Shown: positions 1-15,389, counted from the stretch's first letter. The stretch: 64,000 nt of DNA from Rhodospirillaceae bacterium (GCA_002709075.1 PAPV01000005.1:89989-153988), one strand, 5' to 3'. Notes: a model not told the origin generated them from the sequence alone. Numbers and translations: made by a program.

Positions 1-443
1 TTTTCTTCATTTGCCTCATCAATGCACAGCATCACGTTTACAAAATTGGTGGCATAATTCTCCCAACCTGCTTGCGAGTCCTGGTGAGGTTTAAAGCCAG
101 AACCACCTGGCATTTTGAAATTGATTTTTTCTTTAAATAAATAGGCAGCTTCACCTAATAACTGTTCAACCATAATTTTCAAAACATTGGTTAAAGTTGC
201 AAACCCGTTGTGGAAAGGAGAAATATATTCTATACGGTTTATAAGTTTTTTATTATCGATTTGGCCGCTCTCATGAAAAACCCAATGTTTTCCCGCCTCT
301 TCGGGTAGTTCTTCAACCTCCATTGCCCATTTATCAATTATCTCAATGTCAGATGAAGAAAAAGCATTATACAATGCACAACATCCGTTAGCATTAAATT
401 CACTAATATGTTGGTGTGTGAGAATAGGTGTGACAATCATCAT
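1..443 (-). CDS. PhyH-family Fe(II)/2-oxoglutarate dioxygenase. The 5' end (ATG at 443-441) is present; the 3' end is cut by the window edge
   Basis: Hand translation of the minus strand gives MMIVTPILTHQHISEFNANGCCALYNAF...FKMPGGSGFKPHQDSQAGWENY. The K-x-PGG...HQD block with the H-x-D iron ligands is the PhyH/phytanoyl-CoA dioxygenase signature. The ORF track does not list it because it runs off the edge. Confidence 0.6.
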   Translation of the reverse strand, partial: MMIVTPILTHQHISEFNANGCCALYNAFSSSDIEIIDKWAMEVEELPEEAGKHWVFHESGQIDNKKLINRIEYISPFHNGFATLTNVLKIMVEQLLGEAAYLFKEKINFKMPGGSGFKPHQDSQAGWENYATNFVNVMLCIDEANEE

Positions 444-535: not shown

Positions 536-1675
536 ATGATTGACGCAGATGATTTTTTGAACCCAGCGCTTCAGGCTGGTTTTAATTTTTACACTGGTGT
601 TCCTTGTTCATTTCTAACACCAATAATTAATAGGGTTATCTGCTCTGAAACTACGGAGTATATTGCTGCGGCAAGTGAAGGGGAAGCTGTAGGGATAGCT
701 GCGGGTGCTTGGTTGGCAGGGAAACTCCCTGTTATAATGTGTCAGAACTCCGGCCTCGGGAATGCTGTTAATCCTCTTACCTCTCTTAATTATCCTTTTA
801 AAATACCAGCACTTTTGATTGTTACGTGGCGGGGGGCGGTGGGTTTAGATGATGAACCGCAACATCAGCTTATGGGACAGATCACTAAGGATATATTAAA
901 TATTATGCGTGTTCCGTATGGTATGTTCCCCAATAACAAAGCCTCAATTAACCCTGCAATTGAGAAGGCTATTAGTGAAATTTCTAAAAATAACCTTCCT
1001 TATGCCATGTTGATGAAAAAAGGTTCAATTCAAAACGAGGAAATACAGCCATTAAAATCCGATAATTTTATTTCAGGTGAACTTTATGATTGGACAACTT
1101 CAAAAATTTTTCCTAGCAGGGTTTCGGCAATTAAAAATGCACTTGAAATTCTACCTTCAGATGTAGGAATTATTTCTACCACTGGATATACAGGACGAGA
1201 GCTTTATGAAGTGGCTGATCGAGAACAACACCTATATCAAGTCGGATCAATGGGATGCGCTGCTGGAATGGGGTTTGGAATTGCAATTAATTCAGAGAAA
1301 AATATTTGCGTTTTTGATGGAGACGGAGCAGCTTTAATGAAGCTTGGTACCATGGCTACAGTTGGCGCTTACAAACCTAAAAATTTCATCCACATATTAT
1401 TTGATAATGGGACTTATCAGTCTACCGGCGGACAGCCTACAGTTTCATCAAGTATCAATTTTGCTAAAATTGCAATTGCTTGTGGTTATCGGTTAGCTTT
1501 TTCTTGCAATGATTTAACCCATTTTAATGAAGCGTTAAACAAAAGTAAAATTGATGGTGGCCCCACACTGATTCATATGCGGGTAAGAAAAAAATCTTTA
1601 GTTGTCCCAGGGAGGCCTAAGATCGGTCCAGCAGAAGTTGCTGCACGTTTCAGAGATTTTTTAGCGCAAGAATAA
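536..1675 (+). CDS. ppd: Phosphonopyruvate decarboxylase (ThDP-dependent). Track ORF starts at GTG 521; ATG 536 (MIDADDF...) preferred
   Basis: ThDP-binding motif GDGAALMKLGTMATVGAYKPKNFIHILFDNGTYQ (GDG...NN). Overall length and N-terminus are typical of Ppd/AepY and sulfopyruvate decarboxylase relatives. The context with a PhnW-like transaminase favours Ppd. A GAGAAAG RBS-like element sits 6 nt upstream of ATG 536. Confidence 0.7.
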   Translation: MIDADDFLNPALQAGFNFYTGVPCSFLTPIINRVICSETTEYIAAASEGEAVGIAAGAWLAGKLPVIMCQNSGLGNAVNPLTSLNYPFKIPALLIVTWRGAVGLDDEPQHQLMGQITKDILNIMRVPYGMFPNNKASINPAIEKAISEISKNNLPYAMLMKKGSIQNEEIQPLKSDNFISGELYDWTTSKIFPSRVSAIKNALEILPSDVGIISTTGYTGRELYEVADREQHLYQVGSMGCAAGMGFGIAINSEKNICVFDGDGAALMKLGTMATVGAYKPKNFIHILFDNGTYQSTGGQPTVSSSINFAKIAIACGYRLAFSCNDLTHFNEALNKSKIDGGPTLIHMRVRKKSLVVPGRPKIGPAEVAARFRDFLAQE

Positions 1676-1680
1676 TTTTT

Positions 1681-2823
1681 TTATTTACGATTCAAGTTTT
1701 TCGAATTTAAACCAATTGATGCCAAATAAATAGATATTTCTGAGAGTGCGCGGTCAATATCTGTTTTGTTAATATCGCCAATGCAACCAATTCTGAATGT
1801 TTTTTCCTGTGTGACTGCGCCAGGATAAAGTATTACTCCTTTTTTACGCAACGCCTCGTACATCATTTCAAAATCAAAATTTGGATTTTTTGGAAATCGG
1901 ACAGTTACAATTATTGGTGACTGTTGCATTTTAGATAAGAACAAATTAAAGCCTAATAAGCGTAATCCATCCACAAGCTGGTTACAATTAGCTTGATAAC
2001 GTGTTTCCCTTGCCGAAACACCGCCCTCGTTCTCCAGTTCTACAAGGGCTTGATCGAGTGCGGCTAAGACATGTGTGGGAGGTGTAAACCGCCACTGACC
2101 AGTTTTATCTAAATATTTGGCTTGATCATGCAAATCAAGGCAAAGCGAGTTAGCATTTCCGGCAGTAGTATTTAGGATGTTTGTCTTAATTATTGCATAA
2201 GCAATCCCAGGAACACTTTGCAGACATTTGTTTGACGAAGATATCAGCGCGGTTGCAGGTATTTTCTTGAGATTTATTTTTAAAGCACCAAAACTACTCA
2301 TTGCATCAATGATCATTTCACGTTTAGCATTTCTAACGATTGATGCTATATTCTCTATTGGGTTTAGAATGCCAGATGTGGTTTCACAATGGACTACGGC
2401 GACGTGGGTAATATCTGTGTTGGTTTCAAGTCGGGAGGCAATTTCGCAGGGGTCGGGCTGAATGTCTTCAGGTGTTTTGTACACTTCATATGCTCTGCCG
2501 AGATAATCACAGATTTTAGCCATGCGTTCCCCGTAAACGCCATTAATCAGAATTAAACATTTTCCCATTCTACGTGGCAGCAATGTGCCGAGTGTAGCTT
2601 CAACAGCAAAAGTTCCACTGCCTTGGATTGGAATGCAGTTATAGCCTTCTTCTGCCCCTGCAAGTTTACAAAGTTTCGATCGGACTCTAGCGGTCATCTC
2701 TATGAACGTTTTGTCTCTCGATCCTATATCGCGATTTAATGCCTTCCTAACTGTGACTGACGTTGTCAATGGACCCGGTGTGAGGAGAATTTCTCCACGT
2801 TTTCTCTCTTCGTTAGTTTGCAT
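1681..2823 (-). CDS. phnW: 2-aminoethylphosphonate:pyruvate aminotransferase (class V, PhnW-like AEP transaminase)
   Basis: Strong PhnW-type blocks: LLTPGPLTTS near the N-terminus, IDAMSSFG, SSSNKCLQSVPG (PLP lysine region), WRFTPPTH and IYPGAVTQEKTFRIGCIG. Convergent with ppd, with only 5 bp between the stop codons. Confidence 0.8.
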   Translation of the reverse strand: MQTNEERKRGEILLTPGPLTTSVTVRKALNRDIGSRDKTFIEMTARVRSKLCKLAGAEEGYNCIPIQGSGTFAVEATLGTLLPRRMGKCLILINGVYGERMAKICDYLGRAYEVYKTPEDIQPDPCEIASRLETNTDITHVAVVHCETTSGILNPIENIASIVRNAKREMIIDAMSSFGALKINLKKIPATALISSSNKCLQSVPGIAYAIIKTNILNTTAGNANSLCLDLHDQAKYLDKTGQWRFTPPTHVLAALDQALVELENEGGVSARETRYQANCNQLVDGLRLLGFNLFLSKMQQSPIIVTVRFPKNPNFDFEMMYEALRKKGVILYPGAVTQEKTFRIGCIGDINKTDIDRALSEISIYLASIGLNSKNLNRK

Positions 2824-2993
2824 TCTTCCTTGCCTAACTCGTTCCTATCATGCATGAATTTCTAGTATGCACATGTTGACAACTTTATGCCAAGCATACT
2901 TGTCTTTTGAAAACATGGGAGGAACCAATAAGCCATAATACTTGGATACACCGAATTGTACGGAAGGGGGTAAGACCACTTTTAAAGACATCG

Positions 2994-3539
2994 ATGCATC
3001 CCAATTTTCTTACAACACTTAGATTTCTTACCGGAATGTTTTCCGCTTTCCTATTCTCAATCGACAATTTCTATTGGAGATGGGAAGCAATTTTGATACT
3101 TACAATTTCTTTGTTACTAGATCGTGCAGATGGAGAATTTGCCCGTCAAACCGGCCGCACAAGTAAATTTGGTCATAAATATGACTTGGTTGCTGATGGG
3201 GTTTCTAACGCGGCTTTGTTCGCCGGTATAGGGTACGGAATGCCCTCAAACTCTTTAGGCGGTTATGCGATGGAGGTCGGTATGGCTGCTGGAATTGCAA
3301 TTCTAGGCACAGAATTTCTGGTAATGCGAGCACATGATACTGGAATAAAAAATACTAAGGATATTGGAAATTTTTATGGTTTTGATCCTGATGATGGAAT
3401 GTTTCTCGTCCCTGTGGTGCTTGCATTTCATTGGGAAAATGCATTACTCATAATTACGGTAATCGGAGCTATAATTTCATTGCTAGTTACATTAGTTATG
3501 GTTGTTCGTGGATCCAAAAATTCTGCAGGAAAACTGTGA
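2994..3539 (+). CDS. CDP-alcohol phosphotransferase-family membrane protein (small, ~181 aa; ORF extends to a TTG at 2907)
   Basis: Family motif D-G-x2-A-R-x8-G-x3-D-x3-D is present as DRADGEFARQTGRTSKFGHKYDLVADG. The N-terminal PNFLTTLRF matches the usual TM1 entry of this family. Multiple TM helices. No SD seen for either start, so the start is uncertain. Confidence 0.7.
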   Translation: MHPNFLTTLRFLTGMFSAFLFSIDNFYWRWEAILILTISLLLDRADGEFARQTGRTSKFGHKYDLVADGVSNAALFAGIGYGMPSNSLGGYAMEVGMAAGIAILGTEFLVMRAHDTGIKNTKDIGNFYGFDPDDGMFLVPVVLAFHWENALLIITVIGAIISLLVTLVMVVRGSKNSAGKL

Positions 3540-6155
3540 ATGTGGGAATGTTACTTAGGTAGACTTGCCAATAAGGTTGTGCATCTTTCGGTAAAACATC
3601 ACATAATAATTATTACCTCATATGTTTTGATTGCCGGATACTTATTTTGGTACGGTGCGGTAAACCTAGCAATCAATACAGACAATGCTGATCTTTTGTC
3701 TAGAGATCTTCCTTTCCGCACTCACCACATTGAAATAAAGGAGTCATTTCCACAGCTTTCTAACAATATTATTGTGGTCGTAGATGCGTTGACAACTGAG
3801 CAGGCGGATTATGCAGCTCTAAAACTTTTTAACGCTATTAAAGCAAAAAAAAAGTTATTCCCTGCTGTATTTTATCCTGCAGGAGAGAGATATTTTACTA
3901 AAAATAGCCTTTTATTTCTTGATAAGGTTCAACTCAGACATTTAATGGAACACCTAATAGACCATCAGTTTTTTATTGGTCGATTGGCTGCTGACCCGAG
4001 CCTTCGTGGATTATTCAATATTTTAACTCTTGCCCTTAATCAGGTGAAAAATAGTTTTGAAAAAAATGAATTAATTAGGTTCATGGATATGCTAACCAGA
4101 TCCCTCCAATCAGGACTCGAAAGACCGAAGGCAAGTTTTTCTTGGCAAAATTTTATAGGTCAAGATGCAGTTCAAGATCCAAAAAATCGCAGATTTATTA
4201 TCCTTAAACCAAATCTTGATTATGGTTCCTTACAACCTGCACAAAACTCAATGTCAGAAATCCGGAGGCTAGCCTCAAGTTTGAAACTTACCCCTGCTTT
4301 CGGTATTCGAGTGCGGCTCACTGGGACCGTTCCAATGGAACAAGAGGAGTTAGCCAGTGTGGTTGAAGGCATGGGTGTAGCCGGAGTGACATCATTTGTT
4401 TTGGTGTTAACACTTTTATTTGTGGCGATGCGATCATTTAAAATGGTTATTTCGGCTATATTAACATTAATTGCGGCCCTTGGCTGTACCGTCGGATTTG
4501 CGGCATGGGCTGTAGGCAGTCTGAATTTAATATCCGTTGCATTTATAGTTCTTTTCATAGGGCTGAGCGTAGATTTTGCCATTCATTTTTGTTTGCGAAT
4601 TCGGGAAGAAATAATTGATGGGAAAAGAATGTCAGGTTCGGCACCTAGAGCGGCTAGAAAGATAGCAGGCGCGCTCTGTTTGTGCACCGCTACTGCAATG
4701 ATAGCTTTCTTCAGTTTTTGGCCAACAAATTATGTAGGTCTGGCAGAACTTGGGATTATCTCAGGTGCAGGCATGCTTATTGCTCTAATAGTTAATCTAA
4801 CTTTTTTTCCTGCGCTTCTCAAAATGCTTGGGTTTTTTAATAGGTCAACTTCAATATGCAAAAAACCCATTGTTATAAATGAGGCCTGGCAAGTGAGGCA
4901 CTCCTTCAAGATTTTGATATTTGCTTCAGGCCTAACGATTGGGGCATCACTTCTCGTGGTGGATGTTCGTTTTGATTTTGATCCATTAAATCTAAAAGAT
5001 CCAGAAACTCAGTCGGTTTCAACCATGTTGGATTTAATGAATAAATCTGATTTATCGCTTTACTCTGCGGACATTTTAACCAAAGGGCCAACCGAAGCGA
5101 TAAAATTAACTCAAGAACTGAAAAATTTACCCACCGTCGGTAAAGTAGTAAATGCATTTAGCTTCATTCCTGTAGAGCAATCAGAGAAGCTATCTATAAT
5201 TTCTGAGGCTAAACTTCTTATTTTACCAGCGCTGTATTTGCCGAAGATACCCAAACCGAGTGAAATAGAAACTCGTAAGTCAATTGCTCAATTTCTTGAT
5301 TCGGCTACAAAAATGGATCATCAAAAACAACCCAAAATTGCATTTGCAGCTAAAAGTCTGATTAAAAGCATGCAACATTACAACCTAGAAAATCTGAAGG
5401 AATATAAACAACTAGAAGAAAATTTATTGGGTAATTTACCGAACTCAATAGAAAAACTAAAGGAGATGCTTTCCGCCTCCAGCGTTGTATTTGATGACGT
5501 GCCAATTAGTATCCGTCAACGTTTTGTTGATAAAGATAATCGCTGGCGGGTGGAGGTACATGCGGCAAAAAAAACAAGAGATCCAGATAATTTAATAACA
5601 TTCGTAGATGAACTGAAATCAGTGGCGCCGACGGTAACTGGGTCGCCTGTAATTATAGTTGAAGCAAGTCGCGTCGTTGTTCAGGCATTTTTGGTGGCGG
5701 CTGTCATATCCATCGGGGCAATTTCAATCTTGTTGCTCATACTGTTGAGAAGAATTGACGATGTGCTTTTGACATTTGTTCCTTTGGTATTGGCTACTTT
5801 ATTGACTGGCGCAGCAAGCGTTTTGCTTGATATGCCATTCAATTTTGCTAACATAATCGTATTGCCACTAATATTTGGTTTAGGGGTTTCCAGTATGGTG
5901 CACTTGATCATGCGGTCTGATGATTTTAGCATTCCAACCGCAATTTTTTTAACTTCAACCCCACGAGCAGTAAAATTTAGCGCTCTTACTACAATCGGAT
6001 CCTTCTCCACTATCGCACTCTCGAGTCATCCAGGAACCTCTAGCATGGGGGTGCTACTTGCCGTTTCCATCGGCTTCACTTTGGCTTCTTCTTTGATTTT
6101 GCTTCCGGCACTACTAGTATTGAGAAAGAACTTCATAATTAGTCGTGAAAATTAA
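3540..6155 (+). CDS. MMPL/RND-superfamily lipid exporter (HpnN-like, 871 aa)
   Basis: The architecture is TM1, a large periplasmic domain, a 5-TM bundle (GVAGVTSFVLVLTLLFVAMRSFKM...LSVDFAIHF, SSD-like), a second periplasmic domain and a second TM bundle. Size and layout match MMPL and HpnN-type transporters. Confidence 0.75.
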   Translation: MWECYLGRLANKVVHLSVKHHIIIITSYVLIAGYLFWYGAVNLAINTDNADLLSRDLPFRTHHIEIKESFPQLSNNIIVVVDALTTEQADYAALKLFNAIKAKKKLFPAVFYPAGERYFTKNSLLFLDKVQLRHLMEHLIDHQFFIGRLAADPSLRGLFNILTLALNQVKNSFEKNELIRFMDMLTRSLQSGLERPKASFSWQNFIGQDAVQDPKNRRFIILKPNLDYGSLQPAQNSMSEIRRLASSLKLTPAFGIRVRLTGTVPMEQEELASVVEGMGVAGVTSFVLVLTLLFVAMRSFKMVISAILTLIAALGCTVGFAAWAVGSLNLISVAFIVLFIGLSVDFAIHFCLRIREEIIDGKRMSGSAPRAARKIAGALCLCTATAMIAFFSFWPTNYVGLAELGIISGAGMLIALIVNLTFFPALLKMLGFFNRSTSICKKPIVINEAWQVRHSFKILIFASGLTIGASLLVVDVRFDFDPLNLKDPETQSVSTMLDLMNKSDLSLYSADILTKGPTEAIKLTQELKNLPTVGKVVNAFSFIPVEQSEKLSIISEAKLLILPALYLPKIPKPSEIETRKSIAQFLDSATKMDHQKQPKIAFAAKSLIKSMQHYNLENLKEYKQLEENLLGNLPNSIEKLKEMLSASSVVFDDVPISIRQRFVDKDNRWRVEVHAAKKTRDPDNLITFVDELKSVAPTVTGSPVIIVEASRVVVQAFLVAAVISIGAISILLLILLRRIDDVLLTFVPLVLATLLTGAASVLLDMPFNFANIIVLPLIFGLGVSSMVHLIMRSDDFSIPTAIFLTSTPRAVKFSALTTIGSFSTIALSSHPGTSSMGVLLAVSIGFTLASSLILLPALLVLRKNFIISREN

Positions 6156-7144
6156 TGTTTGCGATACGTGTTTTATGTTTGCTGATTGGAGTCGTCCTCT
6201 TAGCCATCATAATTGTTTCAACTGATATATATGCAGCCATAAAATTGATCCAGGGAATGGGATGGGGAATTTTGTTGGTAACGGTAGCTTATAGCGTAAT
6301 CTCATTTGGTGATACGCTATCTTTTCACGTGTTAACCCATAAGATACCCATGACCATAAGAAATTTTTACGAGCTGTGGAAAATAAGGTTAGTCGGTGAG
6401 GCCTATAATCAAGTATTGCCTCTCGGGGGTCTGGGAGGTGAGCCAATAAAAGCGGTTCTCTTAAAGCAGTCAACGGAAATGGATTTGGAAGAAATCACAG
6501 CCTCACTTTTCGCTGCAAAAACGGTAAACATCGTAACCCTAATTATCTTTTTGGCAGTTGGATTTCTTCTGATGGGTTGGGAAAAGAGAATTTCTCCAGA
6601 ATTTTTTCGGGCAGCTGGATTAGGATTAGCGGTTTTGAGTCTGGGTATACTGGGTTTCTTTCTTATTCAACGAATGGGTTTGTTGTCCGTTCTTTTCAGT
6701 AGACTGTTACATCGACTGAAAGGACGCTTTTTAAATGTAATTGCAATAATTTCAAACATTGAACACCGATTATACGAATGTTACCGCTATCGAAAATATC
6801 GTTTCCTAGCTTCGCTTTTTGTCGCTCTTATTGTTTGGGTTGTAAGCATAGTTGAAGTGTATTTAGTACTTTATTTTTTAGGGTATCCAATTAGTTGGAC
6901 AGAGGCATGGATTATAGAATCCGGAGCTCAATTAGTGAAAGCAGGCACCTTTTTTATTCCAGGAAGTATAGGAGCCTTTGATGGAGCATTTTTATTGCTG
7001 TGTGGAATGATTACTGGTTCGCCGGTGGTGGGTGCAGCCGTTGCGGTTGTAAGGAGGCTTCGCGAAATTTCATGGACTGCCTTTGGATTTGCTATCGGGA
7101 TATTCAGGCTGAAAAAATATGAACAAGGAAAGAAAAAATATTAA
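6155..7144 (+). CDS. Flippase-like / UPF0104 (LPG_synthase_TM) integral membrane protein, HpnL-like
   Basis: About eight predicted TM helices, 329 aa, with a conserved RLVGEAYNQVLPLGGLGGEP segment typical of the flippase-like domain. Its ATG overlaps the stop of the MMPL gene (TAATG), which suggests translational coupling. Confidence 0.6.
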   Translation: MFAIRVLCLLIGVVLLAIIIVSTDIYAAIKLIQGMGWGILLVTVAYSVISFGDTLSFHVLTHKIPMTIRNFYELWKIRLVGEAYNQVLPLGGLGGEPIKAVLLKQSTEMDLEEITASLFAAKTVNIVTLIIFLAVGFLLMGWEKRISPEFFRAAGLGLAVLSLGILGFFLIQRMGLLSVLFSRLLHRLKGRFLNVIAIISNIEHRLYECYRYRKYRFLASLFVALIVWVVSIVEVYLVLYFLGYPISWTEAWIIESGAQLVKAGTFFIPGSIGAFDGAFLLLCGMITGSPVVGAAVAVVRRLREISWTAFGFAIGIFRLKKYEQGKKKY

Positions 7145-7146
7145 AG

Positions 7147-7770
7147 TTAATTGGCAGCAAGAAGCCGTCTAGTTTTGGAATTTAAAACGATGGTTAATGC
7201 TTTTGTCCCCCCGGTTGTTAGAATTTTTCTGTATTCAGACCGTCTAGTTGCTAGCTCACTAATGCCACCCGCTAAAATTATATCTATCACACGCCAGACA
7301 CCATTGGTCTCTAGAAGAACGTATGCAATTTGAATTGGCTTGCTGCGTTTGTTGACTATTTGAGTGGTTATAACACGCGATCCACTCGGTCCAAGAGTGT
7401 TAGATAAAGTAATAAATTTTTGACCAGAAAAACTATTAAAACGCAACGCGTAGTTGGCAGCACTATAATTACGAAAAGCCTCAACTAGGTTCTTTTGTTC
7501 AATTAACTTTGCTTTACGCCAATGGTTACCACTAATAAGTTTAACCATCCCCTTTAAGTCAAAAACTTCTTGAACTAGCTCTCTTAGATTTTTATAGCGT
7601 CCTTGCAGCCCCAGATTATTTGCTGTCTTCATTGTATGCAATAAGTTCAAGTGAAATTTTTTTATTTGTAATACGGGTCTGTTCTCGGCGCGTGCGCCCG
7701 CAGACAATACGACCAAAATTATTAATAAAAATTGGAACAAACGTTTTTGTTTTCTATAAATTTGCTTCAT
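7147..7770 (-). CDS. MlaC/Ttg2D-family periplasmic phospholipid-binding protein (HpnM-like). The track ORF extends to 7818
   Basis: Signal peptide (FQFLLIILVVLSAGARA) followed by a ~190-aa soluble domain with the Ttg2D/MlaC pattern (NLRELVQEVFDLKGMVKLISGNHW...). The start at MKQIYRK is preferred over the upstream MFYKL. Confidence 0.6.
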   Translation of the reverse strand: MKQIYRKQKRLFQFLLIILVVLSAGARAENRPVLQIKKFHLNLLHTMKTANNLGLQGRYKNLRELVQEVFDLKGMVKLISGNHWRKAKLIEQKNLVEAFRNYSAANYALRFNSFSGQKFITLSNTLGPSGSRVITTQIVNKRSKPIQIAYVLLETNGVWRVIDIILAGGISELATRRSEYRKILTTGGTKALTIVLNSKTRRLLAAN

Positions 7771-8007
7771 GGTTAATTTGAGTGGCCCTTTGTTGTAATA
7801 TGTTAACTTGTAAAACATTTTTTACCTTATAAACGCAACCTGTAGAAAACTTAATGACAGATGGTGAATCTACTCTATTATCCTAAGGGAATAAGTGATT
7901 TAATCGGTAACGGATGAAACAGTTAGATATTTGTATTTGAGTGCCAGGTTTATTGATGATGATTCTAAATGAATAGTTATACTAAAAAAGTGAGTTAATT
8001 CTTTCAG

Positions 8008-8844
8008 ATGTTGAGTATGGATTTTATTCTAAGAGCCTTCATTCGATCGTGGAAATTGGTAGCAGTATCTATATTCTGTTTGTCAGTTTCCACATCATTT
8101 GCAACAGCATCGAAAATTTACACCACAACAGAGGTTGTTGCTCCCTATAAAATTGACTCTATAGATACAAATGACCCACTTGAGAGTGTAAATAGGGTAG
8201 TTTTTCATTTTAATGATATTATCTACTCATTTGTATTACGCCCTTTAAGTAAGGTTTACGACAAAATACTACCTGACTTTGTTCAGGCAGGCGTCCATAA
8301 CGCTCTGAACAATTTGAATTCACCAGTAATTTTAGCGAACGATCTATTACAAGGTGAATTTGGACGAGCTAAGATCACAATACAACGTGCCGTTATAAAC
8401 ACAACGGTGGGCGTAGGCGGTTTGTATGATGCAGCTTCTAAAATTTGGAAAATACCCATGCACAAAGAAGATTTTGGGCAAACATTCGCAGTTTGGGGTG
8501 TTCAAGAAGGTTTTTATTTAGTGTTACCAATCTTTGGTGCTTCAAATCCGCGTGACGCAACGGGACTAATTGTCAACATGTATGCAGATCCATTTTCTCA
8601 CTATCTAAGAAACATTGGCGAAAATGATGCTGCCATTGCGCGCACCGCGGTTGCAGGTTTAGACAAATTTTCTGAGGTAACGGATGATTTGGAAAAATTA
8701 AAGAAAACTTCGGTTGACTATTATGCAGCAGTTCGCAGTATTTACAGACAAAAGCGCGCGGTTGAAATAAAAAACAGGTCGCACAGAAAAGGCGTATCTA
8801 TTCCAGATTTACATTATGACTTAAATGCTGAGTTACTAAATTGA
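8008..8844 (+). CDS. mlaA: MlaA/VacJ-family outer-membrane lipoprotein
   Basis: Signal sequence, then the characteristic NDPLESVNRVVFHFND...DKILPDFVQ...NLNSPVILANDLLQG blocks of VacJ/MlaA. Confidence 0.8.
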   Translation: MLSMDFILRAFIRSWKLVAVSIFCLSVSTSFATASKIYTTTEVVAPYKIDSIDTNDPLESVNRVVFHFNDIIYSFVLRPLSKVYDKILPDFVQAGVHNALNNLNSPVILANDLLQGEFGRAKITIQRAVINTTVGVGGLYDAASKIWKIPMHKEDFGQTFAVWGVQEGFYLVLPIFGASNPRDATGLIVNMYADPFSHYLRNIGENDAAIARTAVAGLDKFSEVTDDLEKLKKTSVDYYAAVRSIYRQKRAVEIKNRSHRKGVSIPDLHYDLNAELLN

Positions 8845-9846: not shown

Positions 9847-11097
9847 TCAGGCAGCAGTATTTTCTTTTTGCTCCGATAGAATCCGTGAAACAGGTTTATC
9901 GTCGATTGGTAAATGCAGTAACGATGCCACTATCCCGGCACTGATAATCAACCACCAGGCATAGTCATAAGATCCAGTATGATATTTTATTATACCACCC
10001 AACCATACTGATGTGAAGCTTCCAACCTGATGGCTGAGAAATACTAATCCGTAAAGAGTTGCAAGATAGCGCGGTCCAAATACTTCTGCCACGATACCTG
10101 AGGTTAAAGGTACCGTTGCCAACCATAAAATACCAACCGAACAGGCGAATAAAATAACACTTAATTCAGTTTTTGGGAGAATAAAGAATACAAGAAAAAC
10201 TGTTGATCGAGCCGAATAAATAAATGCAAGCAAATACTTCTTTCTTAAAAATCCGCCAAGAAACCCGGAAGCTTGAGTACCAAGCATGTTAAAAAATCCT
10301 ATGAAGGCAATAGCGGTTGCTGCCATAGCGCCACCAACGGCTGTGGCATTTAAATAATTTTCTAAGTGGTTATTTATGAATTGAACTTGAAATCCACAAA
10401 CAAAGAAAGCGACAGTCAACAACCAAAAGCCACGATGACCTGCCGCTTCTTTTATAGCATCTCCGAGACTTTGACTGTCCTTTTTGGATAAAATGCCTTT
10501 GGCAGCACTTGCCATAGTCAGTGCAAATGGAACGACCAGTAAAGCCATAGTGCCAAGAACAATGGTTGCGTATACCCAACCTTTATAAGAAATTAGATAA
10601 TGTGTTAGGGGAACTATTAGCATCTGGCCTGCTGTACCTCCCGAAACAACAATACCAAGCCAAAAAGTCCGCCATTTTTCCGGAGCGACGCGGCCAACAA
10701 TTGATAATAACATTGGAAGTGCAATACCGGCTGACCCAAGTCCGATGAAGATTCCGACATTAAGCACCAATCCGAATTCAGATGTCGATTGTGACATCAT
10801 GAACAACCCAAAAGAGTAAAGCAAGCCGGATAGAATTAAAACACGAATTGGGCCCCAACGATCGGCGGCCGCACCCAGAAAGGGCGCGGCACAGCCATAA
10901 ATTAATAACTGGAGGCCGGTTGCGAAAGACATCACTCTTACATCGGTCCCCCAACCAAGGGCTTCGGAGACTGGGCGTAAAAACATTCCCATGCTTTGTC
11001 GACCACCATAGGCAAATAGAATGATACTTATCGCGCAAATCAACACGATGAATGGGTTATGCCAAATCGTTGACTTAATTATTTCTGCCCTCCACAC
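9847..11097 (-). CDS. MFS transporter (paralog 1 of 3 in tandem)
   Basis: Twelve predicted TM segments. The N-terminal block YGGRQSMGMFLRPVSEALGW and the LPMLLSIVGRVAPEKWR motif are shared with the next gene. Confidence 0.75.
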   Translation of the reverse strand: MWRAEIIKSTIWHNPFIVLICAISIILFAYGGRQSMGMFLRPVSEALGWGTDVRVMSFATGLQLLIYGCAAPFLGAAADRWGPIRVLILSGLLYSFGLFMMSQSTSEFGLVLNVGIFIGLGSAGIALPMLLSIVGRVAPEKWRTFWLGIVVSGGTAGQMLIVPLTHYLISYKGWVYATIVLGTMALLVVPFALTMASAAKGILSKKDSQSLGDAIKEAAGHRGFWLLTVAFFVCGFQVQFINNHLENYLNATAVGGAMAATAIAFIGFFNMLGTQASGFLGGFLRKKYLLAFIYSARSTVFLVFFILPKTELSVILFACSVGILWLATVPLTSGIVAEVFGPRYLATLYGLVFLSHQVGSFTSVWLGGIIKYHTGSYDYAWWLIISAGIVASLLHLPIDDKPVSRILSEQKENTAA

Positions 11098-11116
11098 ATT
11101 CTCACAAAATCAACAA

Positions 11117-12340
11117 TCACGCTGTTTGCGCAAGTCTTTCCACTGGAGTTTCCTTAATAGGCAGGTGAAAAAGGGCAGCAAGTGCGCCTCCCAGTATGAT
11201 AACCCACCACCAGATTTCATAGGAGCCAGTTGAGTCACGAACTACACCACCCATCCAAGTACTAAATGCTCCACCAATTTGATGACTAAGGAAAGCTATT
11301 GCGTATAGCGTTGCCATATAACGCGGTCCAAAAAGAGTGGATATGATACCTGCTGTGAGAGGGACTGTAGCTAGCCATAATACACCTATACATGAAGCAA
11401 AAATGTACACTGAAGTTTGGCTAATAGGCGCTAGAAAAAACGCAAGCATTACCAGTGAACGACCTACGTAGAGAAATACAAGAAGATTTTTTTTTCGAAA
11501 ATGTCCGCCCAGTTTACCCGCGAGCGCTGTACCAATCATGTTCGAAAATCCAATTAATGCTATGGCATGTGCGCCTATTGTTACACCGGTTCCTGTATCT
11601 TCAAGAAATTTGGGAAGGTGGGTAACAATAAATTGCACTTGGAAACCACAAGTAAAAAATCCTAGGCAGAGATACCAATAACTACGCGCTTCCCTTGCCT
11701 CTGAGAGGGCTTGCCCCAAAGTTTGCGTGTCTTTTTTTTGATCCAGGGCGTTTCCACTGGCTTTTCCAACAATTATTGCCATGGGAACAATTGCAAAAAT
11801 AAATGACGCTAAAATAATAACGGCATCAGTCCAGTCCATTCGTGTTAGTAAAAATCCATTAAGTGGAACAAGAAACATTTGTCCGCCTGTTCCGCCGGCG
11901 GATACAATCCCAAGCCATAGACTGCGTTTTTTTTCTGGTGCAACTCTTCCAACCACTGATAGAAGCATTGGTAGCCCGCAACCTGATGCTGCTAGTCCGC
12001 TAAGAACACCAATGCTAAGAGCGAGATGTAGTTCAGATACGGCATTGCTTAATTGGTACATCCCAAATGCATAGAGTGCACCCCCAATAATAAGCATCTT
12101 GATCGGCCCAAGCCATTTATCTGCAATCATGGAAACAAAGGGAACACTTATTCCGATAATCAGGGTTTGAAGACTGACGGCAAAAGAAAATGGTTCAACT
12201 CTTCCACCGCTGATAGAATCACTTATTGGAACGAGAAAAATGCCAAAACTTTGACGGGTCCCGTATGAAATTAATATGATAAGTGTGCATAGTAAAAGCA
12301 CAATGTATGGACTCTTCCACAAGGTGTTTGTTTCTGACAT
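11117..12340 (-). CDS. MFS transporter (paralog 2 of 3)
   Basis: Closely similar to paralog 1 (LPMLLSVVGRVAPEKKRSLWLGIV, HLPI...P tail). Confidence 0.75.
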   Translation of the reverse strand: MSETNTLWKSPYIVLLLCTLIILISYGTRQSFGIFLVPISDSISGGRVEPFSFAVSLQTLIIGISVPFVSMIADKWLGPIKMLIIGGALYAFGMYQLSNAVSELHLALSIGVLSGLAASGCGLPMLLSVVGRVAPEKKRSLWLGIVSAGGTGGQMFLVPLNGFLLTRMDWTDAVIILASFIFAIVPMAIIVGKASGNALDQKKDTQTLGQALSEAREARSYWYLCLGFFTCGFQVQFIVTHLPKFLEDTGTGVTIGAHAIALIGFSNMIGTALAGKLGGHFRKKNLLVFLYVGRSLVMLAFFLAPISQTSVYIFASCIGVLWLATVPLTAGIISTLFGPRYMATLYAIAFLSHQIGGAFSTWMGGVVRDSTGSYEIWWWVIILGGALAALFHLPIKETPVERLAQTA

Positions 12341-12359
12341 ATTTACTAGTTTCAGTTAA

Positions 12360-13595
12360 TCAACCAATCTTAGTTTGAAGCATCACTTTCCGAGTAACAG
12401 GCTTTTCATCAATTGGCCAGTGAATAAAAACTGCAACAAAACCCAGTCCAACCGCTGTCCACCAAACCGGATCGTAGGATCCTCCCCACCCACGTACAAT
12501 ACCACCAAAAGTGATGCCCACAAAACTTCCTAATTGATGGCTTAAGAATACAAATCCGTAAAGGGTTGCTAAATATTGTGTCCCGAAAATTTGAGCTACA
12601 AGCCCACTCGTTAGGGGAATTGTCCCAAGCCAGGTCAAACCCATCAAAGCAGAAAATATGATTGTGCTAACATCGGTTATAGGCATTAGCACATATACAA
12701 CGATACATAAGGACCTCATCATATACAATCCTGCAAGTAAGTATTTTTTACTATATCTGCCCCCTAAAGCACCCCAAACAAAGCTTCCTAGAATGTTAAA
12801 GAGACCAATTAAGGCAAGTGACCAAGCCGCTATCTCCGCAGATATACCAATATCCTTAAGATACAGAGGTAAGTGACTGGCAATAAAAAGTGTTTGGAAA
12901 CCACATACGAAGAAACCCAGAACTAGTAACAAATACCCACGATGATGAAGGGATTCAAAAATTGCTTCGGTCACACTTTGTCGTCGATCGAATTGGTCAT
13001 TTGAAATTATTGGCTTTCCCGCAATGGGTATTATGAGAGGTATTATAATCAGCATTATACACGATAATATTATCAGTGAACTAGCATATCCACTATCGAT
13101 CATAAAATAATGGGCAAATGGTACTACAATTACCTGCCCGCTAGAGCCACCAGCGCTGGCAATTCCCAAAAACAGACTGCGGCGCTTGAGGTGAATGCTG
13201 CGTCCAATTACTGATAGTATAATCGGGAACCCAGTAGCACTCATGGCAAGGCCAGTGAGAACACCCGTACTAACGTGTATTTCAATCTCAGTTGTTGAGG
13301 TGGCCATTAGGTATAGACCAAGAGCATATAACGCTGCACCAGCACTAATTACTCTGCCAGCACCGTATCTGTCTGCTACCACGCCCCATAGTGGTTGTGA
13401 TAGGCCCCAAACAAGAACCTGTAATCCCATTGAGAATGAAAACACAGAAATATTCCAACCATTCGATTCAGAAATTGGGCCTAAAAAAAGACCATATGTT
13501 TGGCGAATTCCAAAAGAGCTTAATAATATTAATGTGCCACAGATGAGAATTAGAGAGGGTGTTTTCCAACCAATTTTCTGTTCCCCAAAATCCAT
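12360..13595 (-). CDS. MFS transporter (paralog 3 of 3, more diverged)
   Basis: Same topology and conserved blocks (FGIRQTYGLFLGPISE, ILSVIGR...KRRSLFLGIASAGG) as paralogs 1 and 2. Confidence 0.75.
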   Translation of the reverse strand: MDFGEQKIGWKTPSLILICGTLILLSSFGIRQTYGLFLGPISESNGWNISVFSFSMGLQVLVWGLSQPLWGVVADRYGAGRVISAGAALYALGLYLMATSTTEIEIHVSTGVLTGLAMSATGFPIILSVIGRSIHLKRRSLFLGIASAGGSSGQVIVVPFAHYFMIDSGYASSLIILSCIMLIIIPLIIPIAGKPIISNDQFDRRQSVTEAIFESLHHRGYLLLVLGFFVCGFQTLFIASHLPLYLKDIGISAEIAAWSLALIGLFNILGSFVWGALGGRYSKKYLLAGLYMMRSLCIVVYVLMPITDVSTIIFSALMGLTWLGTIPLTSGLVAQIFGTQYLATLYGFVFLSHQLGSFVGITFGGIVRGWGGSYDPVWWTAVGLGFVAVFIHWPIDEKPVTRKVMLQTKIG

Positions 13596-14159: not shown

Positions 14160-15389
14160 TTATTCAACCTTTTCTGCATCTTGAAGCATTGCCCACAGCG
14201 AGGATTTCTTGAGATAGTCGCGCGCAGCTGTTTTATCCAAGGATGTGGCTTCCAAATCATCTAGTCGTTTTCGCCTAATATTTATATCATTTTCCTCAAG
14301 GAGTTTCTTGTTGGCGATTGATTGGGCCTGAACATATTTTGTTGCCATGGAACGACGTTGACGATCATACCGTGACAATAGAGTTTCAGGATCCCCATTT
14401 TTTCTATCTATGTCTACAAGTTTTTCAGCTAGATTCAATCCATCATGAATACCTCCATTCATGCCCATTCCTCCCAATGGATTGTTGACATGTGCGGCAT
14501 CCCCAGCCAAAAGCACTCTGCCTTTATGAAAGGTCTCTGCCACTCGCTGATGGACATTGTAAGGGTTGATATCGATAATGTTGTATTCATCTTCATACGG
14601 AAGACATTCAACAAATTTGTGTTGAACCCATTCTACACTTCCTTGTTTAAAACCAGAATCGTCCTTTTCGAGGGCGGGTAATAGAATTCTCCATAGACCG
14701 CTCATGTCGTCACCGGCTACCTTTATAAGTGCTGACCATTGTGTTGGATGCGCAACATAATTTCTGTAATGGTGGCCACCACCTCGCTTTGTCCCGAAAT
14801 CATACTCTGTGGTAGCAATTACAAAGCGTTCCCCCCAAGTAAATCCAGGAAAGTTAATATCCGCAATTTTTCGTGTTATACTGCGTCCCCCGTCGGCTCC
14901 GATGAGATATTTTCCGCGGAAAGTTTCAGTTTCTCCTTCAGGATTTTTAGCTGTGACGGTTACTCCATCTTCATCTTGAATATGATTGGTAACCTGCCAA
15001 GGTCTCAGCAGTGTGAAATATGCTGAATTTTCAGCTAACTTGTGTGTGGTGTTAACTACTTTGTGCTGTTCGACTTGGAGAGCAAACGGATGGTCAAACA
15101 GGTCATCTAAAGCTTGGTAGTCGAATTCAGCTACAATTCTATCGTCAAACCTGTCTCGGAATTGGAAAATCTCTGAAATTATGCCCTGAGGGATAATTTT
15201 TTCGGTTATTTTTAGTGCAGCAAGCATATCCAATGTAGTCGGATGCACAGTAGATGCACGATGATCTCGTGGGGTAGTTTCTTCAGAATCAAACAATATT
15301 ACGGGTATTCCTTGGGTAGATAAATAATAGCCGGTTATAGTTCCAATTGGCCCAGCTCCCGAAATGATAATTGGTTCTTTTGAATTCAT
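14160..15389 (-). CDS. FAD-dependent aromatic-ring monooxygenase (PheA/TfdB/MhpA-like)
   Basis: N-terminal GxGxxG (IISGAGPIGTITG) and a C-terminal DAAHVNNPLGGMGMNGGIHDGLNLAEKL motif typical of class A flavoprotein hydroxylases. Confidence 0.65.
   Translation of the reverse strand: MNSKEPIIISGAGPIGTITGYYLSTQGIPVILFDSEETTPRDHRASTVHPTTLDMLAALKITEKIIPQGIISEIFQFRDRFDDRIVAEFDYQALDDLFDHPFALQVEQHKVVNTTHKLAENSAYFTLLRPWQVTNHIQDEDGVTVTAKNPEGETETFRGKYLIGADGGRSITRKIADINFPGFTWGERFVIATTEYDFGTKRGGGHHYRNYVAHPTQWSALIKVAGDDMSGLWRILLPALEKDDSGFKQGSVEWVQHKFVECLPYEDEYNIIDINPYNVHQRVAETFHKGRVLLAGDAAHVNNPLGGMGMNGGIHDGLNLAEKLVDIDRKNGDPETLLSRYDRQRRSMATKYVQAQSIANKKLLEENDINIRRKRLDDLEATSLDKTAARDYLKKSSLWAMLQDAEKVE

Follow-up and report, generated by a model that had tools for sequence, protein, structure and literature searches.

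The first 443 nucleotides of a 64,000-nt stretch of DNA from a Rhodospirillaceae bacterium (GCA_002709075.1, PAPV01000005.1:89989-153988; the whole stretch is hereafter called the window) carry, on the minus strand, the 5′ portion of an intact gene that encodes a 252-residue Fe(II)/2-oxoglutarate (2OG) dioxygenase of the PhyH family. As judged by sequence comparison, the enzyme belongs to a sister subfamily of the phosphonate hydroxylase PhnY*, and its gene is part of a phosphonate head-group module that lies inside a hopanoid gene cluster. We consider, with somewhat better than even confidence, that its role is the C1-hydroxylation of 2-aminoethylphosphonate (2-AEP) for a lipid head group. 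An earlier note on this DNA had described a PhyH-type gene with an HxD signature on the minus strand at the window edge, about 147 codons of which are visible, divergent from the phosphonopyruvate decarboxylase gene ppd, and had proposed a possible AEP hydroxylase and a head group that may be hydroxy-AEP. The description of the gene was borne out in each of these respects by the analyses reported below; the functional proposal gains support from a match to PhnY*, from adjacency to genes for Ppd and for a phosphoenolpyruvate (PEP) mutase-cytidylyltransferase fusion (Ppm-PntC) in other genomes, and from a Ppd::PhyH fusion protein, while the substrate itself is what we infer.

Recovery and integrity of the dioxygenase gene

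Two features of the window are relevant here, the truncated gene and the spacer that separates it from ppd:

1-443, minus strand: N-terminal 147 codons (58%) of a 252-aa PhyH-family Fe(II)/2OG dioxygenase, PhnY*-sister subfamily (translation, PF05721, NF052437)
444-535, no strand assigned: divergent intergenic spacer between the dioxygenase gene and ppd, 92 nt, presumably bearing both promoters

The reading frame is open from 443 to 1 and encodes 147 residues (MMIVTP...DEANEE). The PhyH signature PGGSGFKPHQDSQ occupies residues 112-124 (window 72-110), and the codons of the HxD element are found at 84-86 (H120) and 78-80 (D122). When compared with the Pfam PhyH profile (PF05721), the fragment gave a match with an E-value of 1.7e-7 and 32.2 bits (gathering score 22) that spans profile positions 1-139 of 213, a partial coverage in keeping with a protein cut by the window edge. 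A promoter scan of the spacer (444-535) returned a single weak sigma-70-like match, which did not rise above shuffled sequence.

The full gene, which the earlier note had suggested recovering, was obtained by an exact-sequence look-up of the Ppd protein, leading to six public marine metagenome contigs (L001-L006; TARA Oceans, JGI 3300020406, Logan and NCBI) that are 99.9% identical to the window. Over up to 11.7 kb these contigs differ from the window by 6-13 mismatches, and the 443 bases are identical in all six. In every one of them the reading frame runs on to a stop codon and yields the 252-aa protein, residues 148-252 of which, including H198 and R209/R210, fall outside the window. The recovered remainder contains the second histidine ligand (H198 in YTPHRSGPN) and the 2OG-binding arginine pair (R209/R210 in RRLYFATYN). 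Being uninterrupted in six independent assemblies, the gene is therefore neither a pseudogene nor truncated in nature. H120, D122, H198 and R209/R210 are invariant across 41 homologues (52-67% identity), PF05721 is carried by all full-length homologues, and the triad and arginine of the window protein align with the metal and 2OG ligands of the solved structures of EvdO2 and PHYHD1.

A sister subfamily of PhnY*

When searched against NCBIfam, the full-length protein matched two models only, namely NF052437 (methylphosphonate hydroxylase PhnY*, Gimesia maris; 142.1 bits, E = 2.2e-41, and E = 8e-20 for the fragment) and TIGR02408 (ectoine hydroxylase EctD; 20.1 bits, E = 3e-4), whose equivalog cut-off of 336.5 was not reached. 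A grouping with the ectoine hydroxylases, for which the earlier note had asked to check, is thus not observed (142 bits to PhnY* versus 20 bits to EctD). With the second histidine ligand present and the gene intact, none of the three outcomes that the earlier note had listed as counting against its proposal was obtained.

The PhnY* score was calibrated using PhyH genes of Rhodococcus and Dietzia plasmids that are directly followed by a PhnZ-type HD gene, the latter scoring 214 bits to the phosphonate-degradation HD oxygenase model. These PhnZ-linked PhyH proteins reached 258-261 bits to NF052437, and hence also remained below its equivalog cut-off of 500 bits. Because the score of the window protein is far below this cut-off and also below that of the PhnZ-paired proteins, the two are assigned to different subfamilies; by these profile scores, the dioxygenase is a member of a sister subfamily of PhnY* and not a PhnY* equivalog. 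The window protein is 32-33% identical to the PhnZ-linked Rhodococcus/Dietzia proteins, and the blocks LFKEKINFK, HQD, NGCLE, PHRS and RR..TYN are common to both families. In a neighbour-joining tree (calculated without bootstrap values) the window protein falls inside a tight family, outside of which the PhnZ-linked proteins and two plasmid-encoded proteins, one from Nostoc and one from Rhizobium rhizogenes, branch as successive outgroups. Rhizobium plasmid matches at 26-29% identity belong to unrelated clusters (N-hydroxylase and tRNA-ligase-like genes) and were retained for outgroup use only.

An AlphaFold model, built on a protein 99% identical to that of the window (P0001), adopts a double-stranded beta-helix with a pLDDT of 91 and a pTM of 0.89 (predicted local distance difference test and template-modelling (TM) scores, respectively). 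The top 50 Foldseek matches in the PDB were nearly all PhyH-family Fe/2OG enzymes; the nearest solved structures are those of proline hydroxylase H11, GriE, PHYHD1 and EctD (TM-score ∼0.7, ∼20% identity, E ∼1e-14 to 1e-15), with which the fold, facial triad and arginine are held in common, and the closest structural neighbours of the model act on free amino acids. This comparison confirms the fold and does not discriminate the substrate. A sequence search of the PDB retrieved distant PhyH-family matches only and no PhnY* structure.

A phosphonate module between two halves of a hopanoid cluster

The genes that adjoin the dioxygenase gene, in the window and immediately upstream of it, are the following (bit scores are given against the respective model cut-offs):

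L002:8407-9132, immediately upstream of the window: NTP_transf_3 nucleotidyltransferase, PntC-like cytidylyltransferase
536-1675, plus strand: phosphonopyruvate decarboxylase (Ppd/AepY); TIGR03297 equivalog, 424.3 bits versus 312.5
1681-2823, minus strand: 2-aminoethylphosphonate:pyruvate aminotransferase (AEPT/PhnW type); NF010006, 486 bits versus 296, and TIGR03301 PhnW-AepZ, 458 versus 361
2907-3539, plus strand: CDP-alcohol phosphatidyltransferase-family membrane protein, candidate head-group transferase; PF01066, E = 2.5e-15
3540-6155, plus strand: HpnN, hopanoid-associated RND transporter; TIGR03480, 871 bits versus 752
6155-7144, plus strand: HpnL-like flippase-like membrane protein (LPG_synthase_TM); PF03706, E = 4e-27, and TIGR03476, 159 bits, below the cut-off of 196
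7147-7818, minus strand: HpnM, MlaC-like lipid-binding protein; TIGR03481, 167.6 bits versus 160.1
8008-8844, plus strand: MlaA-family lipoprotein; PF04333, E = 2.7e-66; by synteny the last conserved cluster gene on that side

The divergent neighbour across the 92-nt spacer is an equivalog-level Ppd. On the other side, the recovered contigs show the order hpnD, squalene-hopene cyclase gene (shc), hpnG, hpnH (−), hpnA, NTP_transf_3, dioxygenase (−), NTP_transf_3 being the Pfam family to which phosphonate cytidylyltransferases of the PntC type belong (PMC6697681). The locus therefore encodes together a Ppd, an AEPT, a PntC-type cytidylyltransferase, a CDP-alcohol transferase and an Fe/2OG oxygenase, and this head-group module lies between two halves of the hopanoid cluster, hpnD-shc-hpnG-hpnH-hpnA on the one side and hpnN-hpnL-hpnM-mlaA on the other, the whole region comprising L002:2494-9908, upstream of the window, and window 536-8844. 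At least 28 species-representative genomes share this hopanoid-flanked gene order, their proteins being 40-80% identical.

In window 2824-3539, the CDP-alcohol transferase gene has an ambiguous start, as a TTG at 2907 competes with 2994 and 3036 in the L001 and L002 gene calls, and some gene callers place a 47-codon minus-strand open reading frame in the gap after the AEPT gene. Directly past the cluster lie three tandem paralogous major facilitator superfamily genes (window 9847-13595, minus strand), whose oxalate/formate- and lactate-type matches of 94-104 bits are all below cut-off, and, after this trio, a gene for a flavin-dependent (FAD) monooxygenase (14160-15389). The remaining 55 kb of the window are of a housekeeping nature (thi, ribosomal proteins, fab, lpt, surA-pdxA-ksgA, pur, topA, gatAB).

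Conserved position of the dioxygenase gene in other genomes

In genomes sampled at one per GTDB species, 467 relatives were detected, and the counts given here and below cover the best 80 of them (51-68% identity), whose neighbours within 10 kb were analyzed using the window proteins as probes and by clustering of the neighbours. The respective genomes are mostly metagenome-assembled genomes (MAGs) labelled Rhodospirillales, Rhodospirillaceae or Alphaproteobacteria, together with some gammaproteobacterial MAGs and three cultured Stappiaceae. The host of the window is itself a marine alphaproteobacterium, and the genomes nearest to it are MAGs labelled Rhodospirillaceae or Rhodospirillales.

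Hopanoid genes were present at 40 of the 80 loci, ppd at 41, Ppm at 27 and AEPT at 23; a stand-alone cytidylyltransferase was encoded at 46 loci, a CDP-alcohol (CDP-OH) transferase at 40 and PhnZ at none (0/80). The recurrent order was hpnL, CDP-OH transferase, hpnN, two CDP-OH transferase-like genes, (AEPT), ppd, Ppm-cytidylyltransferase fusion, dioxygenase, cytidylyltransferase, hpnA, ispH, hpnH, hpnG, shc, hpnE, hpnD. Where Ppm is present, it is usually as the Ppm-cytidylyltransferase fusion, placed between ppd and the dioxygenase gene and divergently adjacent to the latter. Within the cluster, the dioxygenase gene is always found at the junction of the Ppm/Ppd side and the cytidylyltransferase. 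Phosphonate genes only, with no hopanoid genes, were observed at 14 of the 80 loci.

Fusions and gene adjacency in more distant relatives

A profile search of 1.84 billion representative proteins returned 346 relatives at E ≤ 1e-30, and multidomain proteins were looked for among the best 150. One of these (P0214, L094:1-2435; known from a single 3.3-kb contig) is a Ppd::PhyH fusion whose gene is followed by an NTP_transf_3 gene; 368 bits were obtained for its Ppd part, which exceeds the cut-off, and 149 bits to the PhnY* model for its PhyH part, much as for the window protein, with which that part shares 36% identity. Three further relatives (P0176, P0187 and P0212) are fusions of a PhnZ-type HD domain to PhyH. 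In addition, a DUF5690::PhyH fusion (P0263) was encountered, and DUF5690 may be phosphonate-related, since the PhyH part of this protein scores 327 bits to the PhnY* model.

On plasmid pC5.7d of R. rhizogenes (L089:5040-7301), a PhyH gene, whose product shares 41% identity with the window protein, forms a co-directional string with the genes for a LicC-like cytidylyltransferase and for LicD between which it lies; this string, which adjoins VOC-family genes and an aminotransferase gene, could serve a hydroxylated phosphonate or a phosphocholine-type glycan decoration. On an Azospirillum thermophilum plasmid (L093:5429-10826), downstream of an unannotated ppm (CLEDKVFPKMNSF) come aepY, an aminotransferase gene and a coding sequence, annotated as a single protein, with partial PhnY*-like and partial AEP aminotransferase domains. 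As both of these domains are partial and may reflect a frameshift artefact, the latter was not accepted as a true PhyH::AEPT fusion and was counted as adjacency only.

A putative hydroxylase for a phosphonolipid head group

Taken together, these results speak for a phosphonate-converting enzyme in a biosynthetic pathway that is directed at the envelope. Hydroxylation by PhnY* homologues is mostly at the phosphonate alpha-carbon (PMC8942020; PMC8154272), and 1-hydroxy-AEP occurs as a sphingophosphonolipid head group of Bacteriovorax stolpii and as a glycan constituent in Acanthamoeba (PMC8154272, PMC8942020). As Ppd and AEPT are encoded adjacently in the window, 2-AEP is the probable natural substrate at this locus.

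In the model that we propose, H120, D122 and H198 would hold Fe(II) and R209/R210 would hold 2OG; activation of O2 would generate an Fe(IV)-oxo species, which would hydroxylate C1 of 2-AEP to give 1-hydroxy-2-AEP, the substrate of this step being possibly free, CMP-activated or lipid-bound 2-AEP. The cytidylyltransferase would make the CMP-phosphonate, the CDP-alcohol transferase would move the phosphonyl head group onto diacylglycerol or possibly a hopanepolyol as the membrane lipid alcohol, and HpnN, HpnM and MlaA would carry the lipid to the outer membrane. The intactness of the gene, its catalytic residues, its family placement and its conserved neighbourhood are results of the analysis, whereas the substrate, the order of these steps and the acceptor lipid are inferred. 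A more specific version of this model, which we regard as rather unlikely, would be a so far undescribed lipid class, a bacteriohopanepolyol (BHP) with a 1-hydroxy-2-AEP head group that is attached by the CDP-alcohol transferase and exported by HpnN/HpnM/MlaA, the dioxygenase providing the tailoring step.

Several observations weigh against a role in 2-AEP hydroxylation. The window protein, as indicated above, stays below the PhnY* equivalog cut-off (142 versus 500 bits), and any function of its subfamily is a prediction. No PEP mutase was detected in the 64 kb of the window or the adjoining 10 kb upstream, either by a scan for the EDKx5NS motif or by tblastn with a Ppm-PntC fusion, and the whole clade of the window (L007-L016) is without a local Ppm; the ppm of the window organism presumably lies elsewhere in the genome. 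At 12 loci, the dioxygenase gene is accompanied by hopanoid genes, and often by cytidylyltransferase and CDP-OH transferase genes, with no ppd, AEPT or ppm nearby, and about a dozen loci with Ppm and Ppd have no AEPT nearby; owing to both kinds of loci, AEP is not guaranteed to be the substrate across the family. Finally, hopanoid and phosphonate genes are both missing within 10 kb at 24 of the 80 loci, as discussed in the next section.

Dioxygenase, cytidylyltransferase, CDP-OH transferase and hopanoid genes in the absence of ppd, AEPT and ppm within 10 kb were noted at L034, L035, L040, L044 and L062 (and also L047, L068 and L080). Within the cluster, it seems to be the genes for head-group synthesis that are movable.

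Alternative substrates and pathways

The same chemistry might be directed at another phosphonate, such as phosphonoacetaldehyde, 2-hydroxyethylphosphonate or a related intermediate, in which case the head group would not be hydroxy-AEP. Besides the AEPT-less loci mentioned above, which encode Ppm-PntC, Ppd, PhyH and CDP-OH transferases with no class-V AEP aminotransferase within 10 kb, this would be in line with the Ppd::PhyH fusion, which couples the enzyme to the step producing phosphonoacetaldehyde, and with the PhnY* homologue FzmG, which converts phosphonoacetaldehyde to phosphonoacetate and hydroxylates methyl phosphonoacetate (PMC8942020). However, the high-scoring AEPT right behind ppd in the window makes AEP the expected product there, an AEPT may be encoded elsewhere in the genomes that lack it locally, and no PhpC-type reductase was seen in the cluster. 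We therefore judge a different phosphonate substrate to be unlikely.

Distinctly less probable, in our view, is a non-phosphonate small molecule or envelope component as the substrate, the phosphonate neighbours then reflecting a shared cell-envelope theme. The 24 loci without hopanoid and phosphonate genes speak in its favour. They include 13 gammaproteobacterial MAGs (L022, L026, L028, L029, L032, L048, L049, L051, L054-L056, L059 and L063) in which the orthologue, 52-59% identical, is directly downstream of hemN and often near ccmABCEFH, as well as the loci of cultured Stappiaceae (L017, L019-L021; Stappia albiluteola, S. sediminis and Hongsoonwoonella zoysiae), where orthologues of 57-58% identity directly follow OpgC beside GT2 and GT4 glycosyltransferase genes. 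The active-site motifs are unchanged in both the hemN and the OpgC clades, and the enzymes with the nearest solved structures use amino acids or ectoine as substrates. On the other hand, the sole strong curated match of the protein is a phosphonate hydroxylase, fusions with Ppd and with PhnZ-type HD oxygenases occur among close relatives, many genomes have the gene in one and the same slot between Ppm-PntC and the cytidylyltransferase, and genomes with no phosphonate genes at the locus may have them elsewhere.

Two side aspects of these loci may be mentioned. HemN is an oxygen-independent coproporphyrinogen oxidase, which makes an O2-dependent hydroxylase behind an O2-independent haem enzyme an odd pairing, and the Stappia and Hongsoonwoonella strains offer a possible experimental handle on the subfamily, the window protein being small and soluble and candidate substrates being available.

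PhyH enzymes can act on lipids, and a hopanoid side-chain hydroxylase, for example for penta- or hexa-functionalised BHPs, was also considered, given the hopanoid genes at half of the loci (40/80) and the position of the gene between hpnA and hpnN in the present cluster; moreover, we know of no enzyme that has been assigned to the addition of extra hydroxyls to BHPs. Yet orthologues and relatives are found without hopanoid genes, at the 14 phosphonate-only loci and in the hemN, OpgC and Rhizobium LicC-LicD contexts; in the cluster the gene always abuts phosphonate and cytidylyltransferase genes and not shc or hpnH; homology and structural neighbours indicate small polar substrates; and canonical hpn clusters are not known to contain such a dioxygenase gene. 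Such a function thus appears very improbable.

Least credible of all is a catabolic PhnY* that would open the oxidative breakdown of imported 2-AEP for phosphate release: despite the homology to PhnY*, the label '2-aminoethylphosphonate dioxygenase' that IMG attaches to some orthologues, and the wide occurrence of AEP catabolism in the ocean (PMC9381506), this reading was rejected because tblastn with two PhnZ proteins gave no match at E ≤ 0.01 in the window, in L001-L006 (10 kb upstream) or at the 80 orthologue loci, and it is further disfavoured by the failure to find any other phosphonate catabolic gene in the 64-kb window, by the biosynthetic nature of the neighbours (Ppd, cytidylyltransferase, CDP-OH transferase) and by the PhnZ-paired proteins forming a separate, higher-scoring group.

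Comparison with described systems

With PhnY* of the PhnY*/PhnZ oxidative pathway (EC 1.14.11.46; Gimesia maris NF052437), the dioxygenase shares the PhyH fold, a length of ∼250-260 aa, the HxD...H triad, the RR motif and the LFKEKINFK block, as well as the predicted chemistry, hydroxylation of the phosphorus-bound carbon. It differs in that the window subfamily is only ∼33% identical to the PhnZ-linked proteins, was not found beside PhnZ at any of the 80 loci and occurs in a biosynthetic context. That a PhnY*-type enzyme can serve to make phosphonates instead of degrading them is exemplified by FzmG of the fosfazinomycin pathway (PMC8942020), which was compared by description and which, unlike the function predicted here, acts on phosphonoacetaldehyde and methyl phosphonoacetate in a Streptomyces secondary-metabolite pathway.

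The closest counterpart of the module as a whole is the seven-gene core of the Burkholderiales_CDP-OH (Group 1 phosphonolipid) clusters, which contains an alpha-ketoglutarate/Fe(II) oxygenase and for which a 1-hydroxy-AEP lipid has been predicted (Li & Horsman 2022, PMC8942020). The module logic is the same, comprising Ppm(-PntC), Ppd, AEPT, oxygenase, PntC cytidylyltransferase and CDP-alcohol-type phospholipid genes, the oxygenases being likened by description only, and the oxygenase function is a prediction there as it is here; the present module differs by being located inside a hopanoid cluster and by missing a local ppm. A plasmid search with the dioxygenase returned no Burkholderia or Cupriavidus record among its matches.

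Phosphonate-terpene clusters in which ppm, ppd and AEPT accompany squalene/hopene genes have been noted in Nitrosococcus (PMC7285500, PMC8942020) and in Acetobacteraceae (PMC8776678), and a phosphonoterpene has been speculated on. These mentions are single lines at the antiSMASH level that leave the dioxygenase unmentioned, in contrast to the gene-by-gene synteny conserved over many Rhodospirillales described here. In our literature search no paper linking BHPs to aminoethylphosphonate was found, and a 2025 hopanoid genomics preprint makes no mention of phosphonates.

Implications for marine phosphonate and hopanoid lipids

Similar oxygenases had thus already been predicted for Burkholderia phosphonolipid clusters, and the newer part of the present findings is the conserved embedding in the hopanoid cluster, a feature that was absent from the earlier note and that alters the set of lipids to which the head group may be attached. 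If the proposed role is correct, the subfamily would be the missing tailoring enzyme that converts 2-AEP into the 1-hydroxy-AEP head group, a structure chemically known from Bacteriovorax and Acanthamoeba and otherwise only predicted from the genomes of other bacteria. It would also constitute a bacterial source of (R)-1-hydroxy-AEP, which could explain why enzymes degrading this compound, such as PbfA, are common in marine bacteria.

Hopanoids serve as geochemical biomarkers, and phosphonates represent a large share of marine dissolved organic phosphorus. The fixed position of the dioxygenase gene in the hopanoid cluster of widespread marine alphaproteobacteria suggests a link between the fields of hopanoid and phosphonate lipids, which are usually studied apart. 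Should the head group indeed be carried by a hopanoid, marine Rhodospirillales would be a source of C-P-bonded hopanoids, with relevance for both hopanoid geochemistry and marine phosphorus cycling.

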